A stretch of 64,000 bases of DNA from an uncultured bacterium (GCA_963710755.1 CAVQBK010000001.1:256001-320000); one strand, 5' to 3'; counted from the first letter of the stretch, positions 51,027-64,000 are shown. The notes: generated by a model not told the origin, from the sequence alone. Numbers and translations: made by a program.

Positions 51027-54000
51027 CTAAGCCGCACTTTGCAAGGACAGCTTGACCGGTTTGGGCTTGGCTGGCTGGTGGTCTGGGATTACACTTGGTG
51101 GCAAGTTTAGGAACCGGCGCAATGCGTTGTACCTGGCTAACCATGATATCCTGCCCAAATTGGAACCAGTCGTGCTCAAGCGAGACCAGGTTCGGAATAA
51201 TACCTCAAAAGTGTCGGTCGACATCAACAGGCGCTCTCTTACTTTGGGCGAGGCGTTGCCGGAAGCTAACAGTGCGGCTTTTTGTTCTTCCAAGGTTTCC
51301 AGAAGCAGCAGCAACAAACGACTGCTTCCCTGTGCCGGGTTTTGGACAAAATTACAATATGCTTTACGCGCTTGCGACCCCGCTTCGTTCATAGTCTTGG
51401 CTAATTCAGAATCTGACACCCCATGCAACTTCGCAACCAAATAAGCCATTGGCCGGCGCTTCATCATCTGAGTCCTCCATATTGTAGCCAAGGTCTGAGG
51501 CAACAAGTTACTCATGGCCAACTGAATACGAATCCAGACCTTTTGTGCTAGCGCCGCTGTCTCCAGCCTCGAATCCGAACCGCTCTGCACTATTACAATC
51601 GGTTCAAAAGCATGTTTGAAAGCCTCTCTGGCTTGGCGCCGTACGACCAGCTCAAAGAGGGTTTTATTTAATGCTGACGGCCTTTTTCCAGGCCACAAAC
51701 GGAGAGGCACCCCAATGATAAGACGGCCATTACCATCAAATCTGTAGCTTCCCCAGGGCCTGTTGCTGGGGGTAGGTAATGGTTCCACATGCACTTGACC
51801 GCTCTTAAATTTCAAAGCAGACCAATCATCACTTAAAATCAGCGAGGCTTTTTCAAGATCGTTTATAGCTGCAGTACCCTGCCGGTTTTCCAAAGGCAGA
51901 ATCATATAAAGACCCACCAGCTGCCATCCGGTCCATAAGAGCGGTCTCGTAATCACCCGCAGCACTTCCCAGACACCACTACCGTCTTCCATCCGGTTCA
52001 GCCACTTCACCAACCATGGCCCAGATCCTGTGAGTGATTGACCGCTAAGATCCTTAATACTTTTGTCCTGCTCCATTTTTTGGGATAAGCGACGCTCTTG
52101 GGGCTTCCAAGTCCGGCTTGCGGCGCGCTCCACACGAATAGCCATCAGTTCTTCCGTCAGCTCATCCCACCATGATTTTAATCCTGTCCACCATGGCGGC
52201 TGCATGGCGATCACGGTCACCTTGTTCCTCTCTTCCATCCTGCTGAGATGATAAAATTCATGAGCTAATAGGGATATCCTTTGACCTTGCGATAAATTGG
52301 TAAAATGACGCGGCAGGCTCAAACTTAAGGCGCCGTTTTGTTGCACCACATGGGCCAGACTGCCGCCCCAAAGGACTAACTTCCACCAGGATAAATTGGT
52401 GGTTTTTAATGCCACCTGGCTAAGGATAGAGGGATAAAGATCACTTTCTCCATTGATCCATTGATTCCAGGCCGGCCATCCCGGAATAGTAAGTCCAGCT
52501 TGCTTCATGTCCCTTAAATCAGCATAAAAATCATCCCGACCATAGGGGGTAATACCTTGCTTAAACAAAGTCACAAGCAGAGGTAAGCGCATCAGGAAAT
52601 AACCGACAGGCACCACGGAAACCAAAGTTCCCAGCCCCCGGCCCGTGTCTATCCCGGAAAGGAGCAAAATCGCGTCTATCAAGATGCCCATTGACGCCAC
52701 AGCGCCAATCATGGACATGCGCCGTTTACTTTTCTTTTTCGAAGACTTGGCTTGCTTTGCAGAAGACCTGACCTTTTCTTTTCCTTCATCCCAAATAACG
52801 GTATAGGGCATGGTCGGCAAGAGATCCTCTAATTCTTTTTCCTTTTCCTCTTGGAATAATACTTCCACGCCGGGATATTTTCCCCTCAGGTCCTGGCGGT
52901 CGGCAAATAGATGATGTACCACTGCACCAAGCGCCGGAACTTTGTTTAAATTGGAATTTATATAAATAATAGTTTTTGGGAAAGTTGGGATGCTGTTGAA
53001 AAACTTTTCCATTTTTTTCATGAGATTCCTGACCGCTGAATCGCTTCCAAAAACGATGATGTTCATGCACCGGTAAATATCATCAACCACGATATTGTCT
53101 TCATTCAAACCATCTTTAAGTGATGCAAAACTTCCGGCAATGGCAACTAAGTCCACTCCCTTTTTCAGGGTTGATCTATTTCTGCTGATAAATGTCCTTA
53201 TCCTTCCCAAAAGAACGTCTCTATCAAGAGCTTTCGCGGCAGGATAAAGCTGGTTTATGTCACTTACCACTAACTCCTCAACAGCCACATCCTGCTCAAC
53301 CAGCTCTGCAAGCAACATCATTATTTTATTAATCAATTCTCCTGCAGTCTCCTTTGATTCTCCTGTCCCCCCCTTTATTTCATACTGGCCAAAAACAAGC
53401 CGGGGCAATTGCTTAAGGACGTCTTTTTGCTCCGTAAGTCTTTTATAAAACAGATTGGAATCATCCGTTCCTCCAGTAACCAGCATCCCAATAGTATCTT
53501 TTTCCAAATTCGGCAAATCAATTTTACTAATTGGACCCTTGGCCATATCAGCCTTTCCGTAATTACCAATAAGATTAACGGCAATCGGAAGTCCCTCAGC
53601 AGCATTGGCCACTAGGTTATGTAAGAGGTGCATCATGGCTTTAAAACGTTTATAATCCTTTATTTTTTGTTGGTCCGGCCCGGGTGCGGGCATTTCCGAT
53701 TTTTTCACGACCCGAATGGTAACGTCCGTTTTTTTCGGTTGCGTTTCTTCTAATGCTGGCTTAGTCCGTTTTTCCGACATTTCCAGATGTCTTATGGTCA
53801 CCTCTTGCTGTTCTTCAATAAAATCAATAATGTTCTGTCCCAGGTCGCCGAGAGGTTCAAATTGATCTTTGTACCGGGTTATATCTTCGTCATTGGCCAC
53901 GGCCCGGTCCACGGTGGATTTTACTTTCACCTTAATATCAGCCTTGATGGAGCTTTGGAAATCTTCGAAATCCCATTTTTCCCAAAGTTGGGCCATGGCC

Positions 54001-62290: not shown

Positions 62291-64000
62291 GGCATTTTGC
62301 CAAAGGGAATAAGGGCGGCTGACCTGAGGAGCTTGCTTCGGGAATGTTCTTTAAATACTGCTCAAATTGGCCCTCACCTTTTAAAACATCGAGCATGATC
62401 ATCAGACTAGGTTTAAGGATTTTTTGCCGGTCAGAAAGGCTGTGTTTCAAATGAGTGATCCAGATTTCTTGATACCCTGCTTCCAAGGCACTGACCTCGA
62501 TCTCCTGGTCACGAATAGCTTCAAAGGGGTCAAGCTGTTTGTCCAGCTCCATTTTATCAAGGTATTCAGCTTTGAGCAGCCCTTGACCATAGCCGGTGTT
62601 CTTTAATAATGTTGAAAACTGCTTCACCGCCTCTGTCATGAGTTCCATTGCTTGTCTAGGATGACGCCCATGACGCATCTTGGCTAGACGTTGCAACTCC
62701 ATGATCTTCGTCAGACTTTCCTCAACTTCCGGCGTTATTAAATCAGACCGCATGGGTGATAGGAACAGCTTGGTATTCAGGAAATCAAGGGTAAAGTCAA
62801 GCACTCCAAACGTCGTATTCGGATAACGGTAATCATTGAGTAGCGAGCCGAAATTAAAAAGCAGCGGCCAGCCGTCCACAAAAAAGTAGCGCCATAAATA
62901 GGGCTGGTTCATCTTCATAAAAATCTGAGCAATGAAAATATTGTTGAAAGCTTCTGCCATATTAATGCCGTACAGCTCAACCTTTTCCGCCGGGCAATGA
63001 TCAGGCAGCTCACTGTCCTTGATGGTTCTGTAATTGACCACTCTGGCCATCACATAATCTTGCCGGTGAAGTTGAATTTTACTCATGGGGCCGATATTGG
63101 TTTTTTTCCATTGTTCGAACACTTTAGGCGGTATCTCACTTATCGGGGTCATATTGGCCATAGAATGCAGTAGATTATAGGTAAAACGGGTTAATTTAGA
63201 AGGTACCCTGAGGATAAGCCAGTTCTCATTTTTATAGGAGATGAGATGAGCCCGCAAATGCTTTTCCATACGCTCATAGTAATTCAGATAATTTTCAAAA
63301 TAGTGAATTCTTCCGGAAAAAGGATTGATCATGGCCGGTTCGGATTGTTTGACACCCTCGATAAACCGGCCCGCATATTCGCCCAGGCCTTCACCTAAAT
63401 CAGCTTGTAAAAAGGCTAAAATCGCGGTCTTTATCAACTCTTTCCTGGCCTGATGAGCCTTGGCGTCTTTGCTCTGTTGGCTACCTTTCGTCCCGGTCAT
63501 CATCATCACCGGTGACATCGGATCATCCGCCACTTCAAAGTCCATTCCTGCAGGAATAGCTAAAGGCTGCTCTTGATAAAGGCCATTTTTCAACGTGTTA
63601 ACCATTGCTTCCCAGAAGCGCCAAGGCGCCCAAAAAACCTTTAAAAGCCATCCTTTAATGGTATTTCCCCAACCCCTCCACGGCAGGCCGGACAGCCAAC
63701 GATTGAGATCACGGCCACGGTGTAGCAGGAATGTCAGAACCAAATAGACGGCAATAAGCCTCACCAGGGGTGAGGTATCCAGAGCGTGTCCGCGCCAAGC
63801 AGCCAAACGTTGGGTTACAGCCTCAATGTATTCGGGAGCGACCAGCACGATAGGGTGGCTGCCAATGGTCATGGCGACATCCAGTCTTTCTTCCTGTTTA
63901 ACCAGACCGGACACGGCTTTGGGGCCAATTACGGCCAGGGCGGCCTTGGCCCCCAAGCGAATCGGCACCGTCATGGTGTGGTCTTTATAAACTTTAATGT
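62290..64000 (-). CDS. Giant-protein segment (open to window edge) with degenerate kinase-like domain
   Basis: Frame has no stop upstream of ATG 63974 within the window; TM segment, then a globular domain. Confidence 0.6.

Follow-up and report, generated by a model that had tools for sequence, protein, structure and literature searches.

The window analysed here is a stretch of 64,000 nt from an uncultured bacterium (GCA_963710755.1, CAVQBK010000001.1:256001-320000), and the element in question is the minus-strand coding at 51027-64000, which holds six open reading frames (ORFs) of at least 90 aa, named ORF1 to ORF6. As judged by comparison with related genomes, these ORFs are pieces of one ancestral gene, which comprises about 4,850 codons here. 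An even chance is given to the fuller reading that they make up the larger part of one giant gene belonging to a lineage-specific family of inner-membrane proteins. A module encoded by ORF2 is, from its alignment, homologous to SidJ of Legionella and catalytically complete by its residues. The copy of the gene found in the window is a doubtful, possibly broken one.

Collinearity with single giant frames of related genomes

A preliminary description of this DNA had reported more than 13 kb of continuous minus-strand coding. The coding is indeed dense and reaches past the window end, the gene spanning 14.6 kb on the minus strand from a start at 65,579, outside the window, to 51,027; it is not continuous, since the six ORFs form ten frame segments in three phases, separated by nine phase changes.

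When ORF2 was used as query against 41 related genomes, matches were obtained in six. In two genomes of the same family (G007 and G009) the matches lay inside single open frames of 12,551 and 12,061 aa, respectively, the starts of which were 38-40% identical to residues 2-642 of ORF1. Five places of the G007 frame matched the ORF2 cargo and one matched ORF3, and its last 300 residues matched the tail of ORF6. An iterated profile of the C-terminal domain of ORF6 showed the presence of this domain at the C-termini of both giant frames, and the same profile gave no match in the Protein Data Bank (PDB). In the same-genus genome G001 a single 764-aa frame (L096) was found that leads from the end of ORF3 via ORF4, ORF5 and a gap of 340 nt into the start of ORF6. 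This frame corresponded to three interleaved frames when aligned to the window by tblastn, and at least six of the nine breaks are read through in G001. The assignment of the ORFs to one ancestral gene follows from the collinearity of head, part order and tail with the single giant frames of relatives. The existence of a giant, membrane-anchored, modular protein gene, as claimed in the preliminary description, is thus in agreement with the relatives, where it occupies single frames (12,551 and 12,061 aa).

The pieces might instead be independent neighbour genes arranged head to tail, each with its own start, and gene callers do list ORF1, ORF2 and ORF6 separately (P0001, P0003 and P0037, each the sole member found). 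This explanation is considered very improbable: neighbouring ORFs share 38 to 182 nt at their ends in different phases, with no plausible start outside the preceding frame, the boundary between ORF2 and ORF3 falls inside a linker whose second copy is intact, and the same parts stand in one frame in relatives. Caution is called for with the annotation, three of the pieces being catalogued as separate proteins without a family and the kinship to SidJ being visible only by profile.

SidJ-like module, head domain and membrane hairpins

SidJ and SdjA are calmodulin-activated kinase-fold protein glutamylases of Legionella pneumophila (PDB 6oqq, 6k4k, 6plm, 7mir and 7ppo). A single ORF2 query against 1.84 billion representatives retrieved 34 proteins at E 1e-3, all of them matching within residues about 390-970. 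A profile of 29 sequences (A5), containing these ORF2 matches and the copies of relatives, was compared with PDB by hmmsearch and matched SidJ chains with E values of 7.9e-49 to 2.9e-47; profile positions 195-606 were aligned with SidJ residues 346-751, and the match stops at residue 751. Two pieces of the 12,551-aa relative, one of them holding a SidJ-like copy, gave nothing in PDB when used as single sequences; single sequences are therefore too weak to reveal the kinship. The AlphaFold (AF2) model of the module had a predicted local distance difference test score (pLDDT) of 76.4 and a predicted template modelling score (pTM) of 0.80. Its Foldseek comparison gave 15 matches at E 1e-3 or better, and the 12 listed with E up to 7e-11 were all SidJ entries (best E 2.4e-13, about 770 aligned columns, TM-score 0.40-0.48, ~15% identity).

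The alignment gave the following equivalences between ORF2 and SidJ: R547 to R352, K562 to K367, E576 to E381, D709 to D489, H712 to H492, R718 to R500, Y724 to Y506, N752 to N534 and D761 to D542. In those A5 rows that have a residue at the position, the canonical site was conserved at K367 (27/27), E381 (28/28), N534 (28/29), D542 (29/29) and R352 (27/27), and the migrated nucleotide pocket at H492 (29/29) and R500 (28/28), the Tyr equivalent to Y506 being found in ORF2 only and the position being variable elsewhere. In the excerpt of PMC6858067 consulted, activity of SidJ was abolished in K367A, D542A and an H492 mutant, and all residues named there as essential or important are present in ORF2; uncharacterised SidJ homologues outside Legionella are also mentioned in that source. 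The module would carry out ATP-dependent glutamylation (or AMPylation) within its own cell, with some other module or a paralogue as a possible target protein.

The ORF2 module thus resembles SidJ and SdjA in fold, in its homology over SidJ 346-751 and in the full residue set, and differs from them in being one module of a giant membrane protein in an uncultured environmental bacterium, with up to five copies per frame in relatives. Also in contrast to the Legionella proteins, no VirB4-type ATPase of a type IV secretion system (T4SS) was found in the source genome (G000). SidJ-like modules were present in 4 of the 81 genomes of a phylum sample, and the five copies mentioned lie in one G007 frame. 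What is understood of SidJ-type glutamylases so far concerns a Legionella effector alone; catalytically complete copies in an environmental bacterium, up to five per protein, could help to trace the ancestral role and the substrates of this enzyme type.

The head (the first 450-600 residues of ORF1) was 36% identical to the start of the next upstream gene (2192 aa). Its AF2 model, obtained with 73 sequences, had pLDDT 87 and pTM 0.84. The best Foldseek rows were EreC (E 5e-3, probability 0.92) and BcR135/Bacillus cereus Ere-like proteins; the scores were moderate, with E above 1e-3 in this comparison of the alpha/beta core fold, and the group was consistent, the top five all coming from the Ere/ChaN/HopBA1 group. 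Six of the VIA rows listed belonged to this group, with Z scores near the background level of the tool (HopBA1 8.8, ChaN 8.2, EreC 8.0, 2qgm 7.9, 2rad 7.6 and PMT 6.0). The model thus suggests an erythromycin-esterase/ChaN/HopBA1-like fold for the ~450-aa head. This fold, which also includes PMT, is grouped with Tiki and TraB/PrgY, and the Ere enzymes possess a His/Glu/His set. Invariant in the head were Asp-Leu-His-Cys-Asn, Glu, Arg, Gly-Gly-x-His and Tyr, including H51, E79 and H367 in the numbering of the head alignment (A3), which suggests an active site. The invariant His, Glu and Gly-Gly-x-His recall the set of the Ere enzymes; unlike the members of that group, the head has a helical insertion of about 200 residues. 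Neither Pfam nor PDB gave a match to the head by sequence, and its neighbours in the ESM Atlas were only unnamed Omnitrophota clusters of about 550 aa.

The next upstream gene is a tandem paralogue on the minus strand (L001:3811-10389, equivalent to window positions 65,811-72,389) with the same head. Its cargo consists of LMWPc, PPDK_N and a PEP-utilizers mobile domain, and no PEP/pyruvate-binding domain was found in it.

Direct DNA repeats were found in two tracts, one of 212 nt at 78% and the other of 77 nt at 95% identity, spaced 3048/3049 nt apart; the spacing differs by one base because the ORF2/ORF3 break sits in linker copy A. The repeats, which were confirmed at the protein level, encode a linker composed of two hydrophobic helices and a conserved segment of ~100 aa ending in HEGLR. 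An iterated linker profile found only seven instances in all fetched sequence, two of them here, of which one is split by the frame change. A third hairpin, different from the linkers, lies in ORF6 and is followed by HEFYH. The HEGLR of the linker was considered as a decayed zincin; this is not claimed, the hhalign comparison of the linker with the HExxH module giving E 0.45.

Lys and Arg abound on either side of the hairpins (e.g., eight of the 19 residues preceding the one in ORF6), and the hairpin loops, inspected by eye, are short and uncharged. No hydropathy peak was found in the body of ORF3. A crude scan of the giant frames of relatives gave 20 peaks in the 12,551-aa frame and 29 in the 12,061-aa frame. 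The N-terminus of ORF1 resembles a Sec signal by eye (basic start, hydrophobic core and small-residue site), and as read from the peak lists a hydrophobic peak follows the head at around residue 590-690 in 23 of 30 paralogues, together with a hydrophobic N-terminus and further clusters beyond. From the basic flanks and short loops, the positive-inside rule predicts that the hairpins enter the membrane from the cytoplasm; given a signal sequence and a single span behind it, the head would then be periplasmic and every module would face the cytoplasm. We infer this cytoplasmic location for the modules, and it fits enzymes that need ATP or other nucleotides, such as the SidJ-type module, PPDK_N, GGDEF, NTP_transferase and the STAND NTPase.

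The zincin-like module of ORF6 contains A-H-E-x-x-H and a Glu 33 residues later, invariant in 5/5 members. Its Pfam matches, to small zincin families, were sub-threshold only (PhageMetallopep in 2/5 and eCIS_core in 1/5) and its profile had no match in PDB. The profile of the 190-aa repeat of ORF3 likewise gave none, and for the tail of ORF1 no PDB match was better than E 0.02. Homologue searches of a protein collection, confined to proteins of near length, were made with the ORF1 tail, ORF6 residues 1-700 and profile A5, and returned the window's own proteins alone. ORF6 gave nothing in PDB by sequence, and no usable match was obtained in the ESM Atlas for its residues 1-700. The ORF1 tail was also considered as a second kinase-like module and was rejected, its hhalign probability against the SidJ profile being 0.2, which is no sequence support.

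None of the six ORFs belonged to a Pfam (E up to 1) or NCBIfam family above cut-off, and the modules between the linkers were unrelated to one another. Two of the domain labels given previously held up: the SidJ-like one (profile E 8e-49, Foldseek E 2e-13, full catalytic set) and the HExxH one, whose motif is real and invariant. The labels kinase-like, RelE-like and NTase-like (two domains), which concern the ORF1 tail and ORF6 residues 1-700 (the RelE-like and NTase-like ones the latter), found no support in searches of Pfam, NCBIfam, PDB by sequence and the ESM Atlas or by hhalign. The described alternation of hairpin and Trp/Arg-rich linkers was confirmed in so far as two copies and the different hairpin of ORF6 exist; a regular alternation with cargo was not, the linker being rare.

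Proposed plan of the chain, its family and the effector alternative

From N to C terminus, the protein would consist of a Sec-type signal, a periplasmic head of ~450 aa, one membrane span, an orphan module and a hairpin linker; these would be followed by the SidJ-type kinase-fold enzyme, a second hairpin linker and a helical region with a duplicated 190-aa domain, and finally by a second orphan region, a hairpin with a small HExxH...E zincin-like module and the conserved C-terminal domain. The hairpins would dip into the membrane from the cytoplasmic side, with the modules hanging on the cytoplasmic face, and the head may bind or hydrolyse something in the periplasm. The whole could act as a membrane-tethered enzyme chain on substrates of the cell itself.

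The head domain was found by tblastn at 31 loci of the source genome, in open frames of 635 to 9,474 aa; the 30 frames other than the one described here sum to 79,630 aa, equivalent to 6.9% of the genome. In the phylum sample it was present in 15 of 81 genomes, namely in all 11 of the family of the window (f1) and all four of a second family of the same order (f2), and in none of the other 66. Positive genomes had from 6 to at least 21 head matches, and the longest of their frames had 13,678 aa. When one genome per species was scanned with a pattern, 192 candidate stretches came up; 114 of these passed confirmation, and 78 loci were retained. The genomes concerned were labelled candidate division FCPU426, Candidatus Goldiibacteriota or Candidatus Firestonebacteria, with one Omnitrophota. 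The FCPU426 16S cluster falls within Goldbacteria, according to the part of PMC7031533 consulted. By these searches the family is restricted to the order, and the signal sequence and the head domain are common to all its members. In one genome of the set (G002:C1:74,643-107,274) a stretch of 33 kb contained three head matches, the open frames of which had 13,678, 7,289 and 3,041 aa, so that giant paralogues are clustered in other genomes too.

Pfam searches of 16 pieces of paralogues from the source genome (47,311 aa) identified 14 families, each in one member, among them PPDK_N, GH77, TreT_GT1, alpha-amylase, GGDEF, PEP-utilizers, GT1, transglutaminase core, HD, NTP_transferase, nSTAND3 and glucoamylase. 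Known families are nearly absent from the cargo, and the 12,551-aa frame had no Pfam match at E 1e-3. The cargo of paralogues that Pfam could name is, by family assignment, made up of nucleotide-using metabolic and signalling enzymes (PPDK_N, GGDEF, HD, NTP_transferase, nSTAND3 and GT1). By blastp at E 1e-4 the paralogues of the source genome did not match the cargo of the present chain, barring extensions of head matches and one weak ORF3 match. G001 is without a block of 4.8 kb that comprises the first orphan module and the SidJ-like module, ORF1 residue about 684 joining ORF3 residue about 85; since the window has these 4.8 kb, cargo varies between close relatives. The same is evident from the five SidJ-like modules of G007 and from the small number of genomes (4/81) with any, in agreement with the earlier expectation that cargo differs between homologues.

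A wider reading, which we regard as possible although rather unlikely, is that of an order-wide system of up to ~30 giant membrane-tethered enzyme chains per genome (about 7% of the G000 DNA), having a shared periplasmic esterase/ChaN-like head and exchangeable cytoplasmic cassettes that include SidJ-type glutamylases, used by a free-living bacterium on its own proteins. If this were true, kinase-fold protein glutamylation would be a housekeeping or regulatory chemistry, and the chains would be a possible evolutionary source of the Legionella effector. Giant membrane proteins, so far tied mainly to Omnitrophota, are held by a second lineage, the genomes labelled FCPU426 or Goldbacteria. The common head makes the paralogue family easy to find and compare, providing a natural experiment on cassette swapping. 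No description was found in the literature searched of a family defined by this head, of its size in these genomes or of SidJ-type modules in giant membrane proteins.

Several observations weigh against the reading as an inner-membrane enzyme chain. Three modules, about 1,600 aa in all, are without any assignment; the basis of the topology is solely a crude hydropathy scan with the positive-inside rule; and in G007 the segment between the head and the first hairpin is rich in Arg and did not reach the hydropathy cut-off, so that the cargo there would be extracellular if this segment does not cross the membrane. The nine breaks, if real, mean that the chain is not produced as one protein here. 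Another reading is an exported or processed array of effectors or toxins that would be secreted or shed and whose modules would act in prey or host; its linkers would be cleavage sites, possibly for the HExxH module or the head. Points in its favour also weigh against the enzyme chain: the closest characterised relative of one module is an effector injected by Legionella, the head resembles the type III effector HopBA1 and a PMT toxin domain, and an ankyrin-repeat gene lies two genes downstream. Gain and loss of cargo between close relatives would suit such an array as well, as would a predation role like that proposed for giant Omnitrophota proteins in the consulted part of 10.1101/2023.11.21.568195, and the combination of a constant head with changing cargo is reminiscent of polymorphic toxins.

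Export of this kind is nevertheless considered unlikely. Pfam and NCBIfam gave no toxin, RTX, autoprocessing cysteine-protease or secretion-signal domain, and several membrane hairpins with basic flanks would need to be extracted from the membrane. In the source genome, which is 98% complete, neither the sheath (VipB) of a type VI secretion system (T6SS) nor VirB4 was found, and the single FHIPEP gene is the number expected from a flagellum and nothing else. The Pfam-named cargo of the paralogues belongs to glycogen-type metabolism and signalling and not to toxins, and no immunity-like gene was identified downstream. The analogy to MARTX and the role in predation proposed in the preliminary description are thus disfavoured: no RTX repeat, cysteine protease or toxin domain was found, the hairpin charges and the paralogue cargo argue for a cytoplasmic location, and the searches for T4SS and T6SS markers found none.

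The giant inner-membrane protein proposed here shares with MARTX and polymorphic toxins a great length and a modular build with internal or C-terminal modules that vary between strains, and with polymorphic toxin systems a conserved N-terminal part (31 loci share the head) and a variable rest. Unlike MARTX, it has several internal membrane hairpins and gave no match to RTX/glycine-rich repeats or a cysteine-protease domain (Pfam E up to 1; E 1e-3 for the 12,551-aa relative). In contrast to polymorphic toxins, no toxin family was found in ORF6 and no known immunity domain next to it, the downstream genes encoding an SfsA-DUF123 fusion and the ankyrin-repeat protein. The giant ORFs of Omnitrophota are described, in the portions consulted of the preprints by West-Roberts et al. 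(2023; 10.1101/2023.11.21.568195) and Nielsen and Lui (2026; 10.64898/2026.06.07.730766), as inner-membrane-anchored, with a signal peptide or many helices and with divergent, mostly unannotated enzyme domains; the former source adds a divergent SecA DEAD-like domain in most full-length genes. The chain and its relatives are similar to these in the numerous transmembrane segments that the crude scan placed along a very long ORF. They differ in that Pfam recognised SecA_DEAD neither in the chain nor in the 12,551-aa relative (although a strongly divergent copy could escape), in belonging to another phylum, in the shared head that defines the family, and in size, this family ranging from 1 to 13.7 thousand aa compared with more than 30 thousand aa in Omnitrophota.

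Frame breaks, feature coordinates and neighbouring genes

All nine phase changes (Table 1) were one-base shifts in the same direction, and several of the sites, inspected by hand, lie at short runs of G or C. Phases were derived from the ORF end coordinates, three-frame views, the DNA and the tblastn frames, the last seven sites being placed by hand. The ORF2/ORF3 break is a length difference of one alignment column between linker copies A and B, with a stop codon immediately after it. In a soil-metagenome run (X1; one DNA run, 0.07 share), a 203-nt contig had a one-base length difference at 62328 and nine other differences, and brings ORF1 and ORF2 into one frame, which amounts to an in-frame haplotype at break 1; four other X1 contigs were identical to ORF2. 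Independent read data cover break 1 only, the X1 contigs extending over 6 of 30 bins.

Consensus error at a strain-variable locus is held to be the somewhat more probable explanation of the breaks, because nine same-direction shifts without a nonsense change are unlike ordinary decay and fit a mixed-haplotype consensus. The assembly is otherwise clean, with whole-length family matches in 20 neighbouring ORFs, and the frames of 30 paralogues are open, the longest over 9,474 aa. These same facts lend some weight to a truly decayed pseudogene, in which the nine shifts would be real and this strain would make only fragments, at most the 1156-aa ORF1: nine breaks are concentrated in 14.6 kb while the paralogues stay open and the neighbours whole, the G001 copy is missing 4.8 kb and has one in-frame stop, and losses would be affordable in a 31-copy family. 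Decay keeps a considerable probability, although below that of a consensus error. Ordinary decay is expected to mix insertions, deletions and nonsense changes; here all nine shifts share one direction, no in-frame stops were seen inside the frame segments (up to 1,251 codons), five of the nine fall within about 400 nt (about 55,226 to 54,819), and an in-frame haplotype occurs at the one break with independent reads. The uniform direction and size of the shifts and the clean segments between them would also suit programmed +1 frameshifting or four-base decoding at nine sites. This is extremely improbable, as no common sequence was apparent at the sites by eye, the relatives and the second linker copy are without shifts, and ARAGORN identified 45 tRNAs, none with an enlarged anticodon loop.

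In the same-genus relative, one in-frame stop was observed at L017:11,972-12,124 in place of a Trp codon of the window; it may be a sequencing error, the contig being of low coverage. A split ORF had also been suspected elsewhere in the window, at 20928-21671, and was rejected, as it is a stand-alone gene in 11 relatives.

Table 1. Features of the giant gene in window coordinates
Feature	Position	Strand	Remark
ORF1	62109..63974, open to window end; start 65,579	-	1156 aa in total
ORF2	58877..62290	-	1137 aa
ORF3	56080..58989	-	969 aa
ORF4	55419..56117	-	232 aa
ORF5	55124..55405	-	93 aa
ORF6	51027..54782	-	1251 aa
Window part of ORF1 (residues ~527-1075)	62354..64000	-	End of head, transmembrane segment, Trp/Arg-rich stretch, orphan module of ~450 aa
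Single transmembrane segment of ORF1	residues 617-635	-	Within the window part of ORF1
Frame change 1, ORF1/ORF2	62312..62353	-	Three-frame view
Linker copy B	61853..62311	-	Hairpin and conserved ~100 aa ending in HEGLR
SidJ-family module	59267..61852	-	ORF2; 862 aa: helical N-part, kinase-like core, C-part
Linker copy A	58805..59266	-	Cut by frame change 2 at ~58,882 (ORF2 to ORF3)
ORF3 body	56113..58804	-	Two copies of ~190-aa domain (57871-58482 and 56170-56721)
ORF4, ORF5 and 340-nt stretch	54783..56112	-	Seven frame changes, compared with the G001 764-aa frame
N-terminal 683 aa of ORF6	52734..54782	-	Orphan region; no relatives, no family
Transmembrane hairpin, then zincin-like module	52029..52733	-	ORF6
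Conserved C-terminal domain, ~280 aa	51138..51950	-	Common to the C-termini of the G007 and G009 giant frames
Phase changes 1-2	about 62,312-62,353; about 58,882	-	
Phase changes 3-5	about 56,100-56,112; 55,455-55,465; 55,221-55,226	-	
Phase changes 6-9	about 55,093-55,098; 55,058-55,064; 54,876-54,881; 54,819-54,825	-	

Directly downstream of the giant gene, a 380-aa ORF (49748-50890, minus strand) encodes SfsA, with OB and nuclease-like domains, fused to DUF123, and the gene after it (48252-49565, minus strand) encodes a protein of 437 aa with several ankyrin repeats. Farther away, a plus-strand ORF of 957 aa (29597-32470) combines Peptidase_MA_2, PD40 beta-propeller repeats and a C-terminal Omp85 barrel. 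An 849-aa protein (35478-38027, plus strand) has a C-terminal type IX secretion sorting domain (Por_Secre_tail), which suggests that the organism has a type IX export route. The G+C content of the first 2000 nt of the window was 0.373, compared with 0.42-0.54 elsewhere in it.

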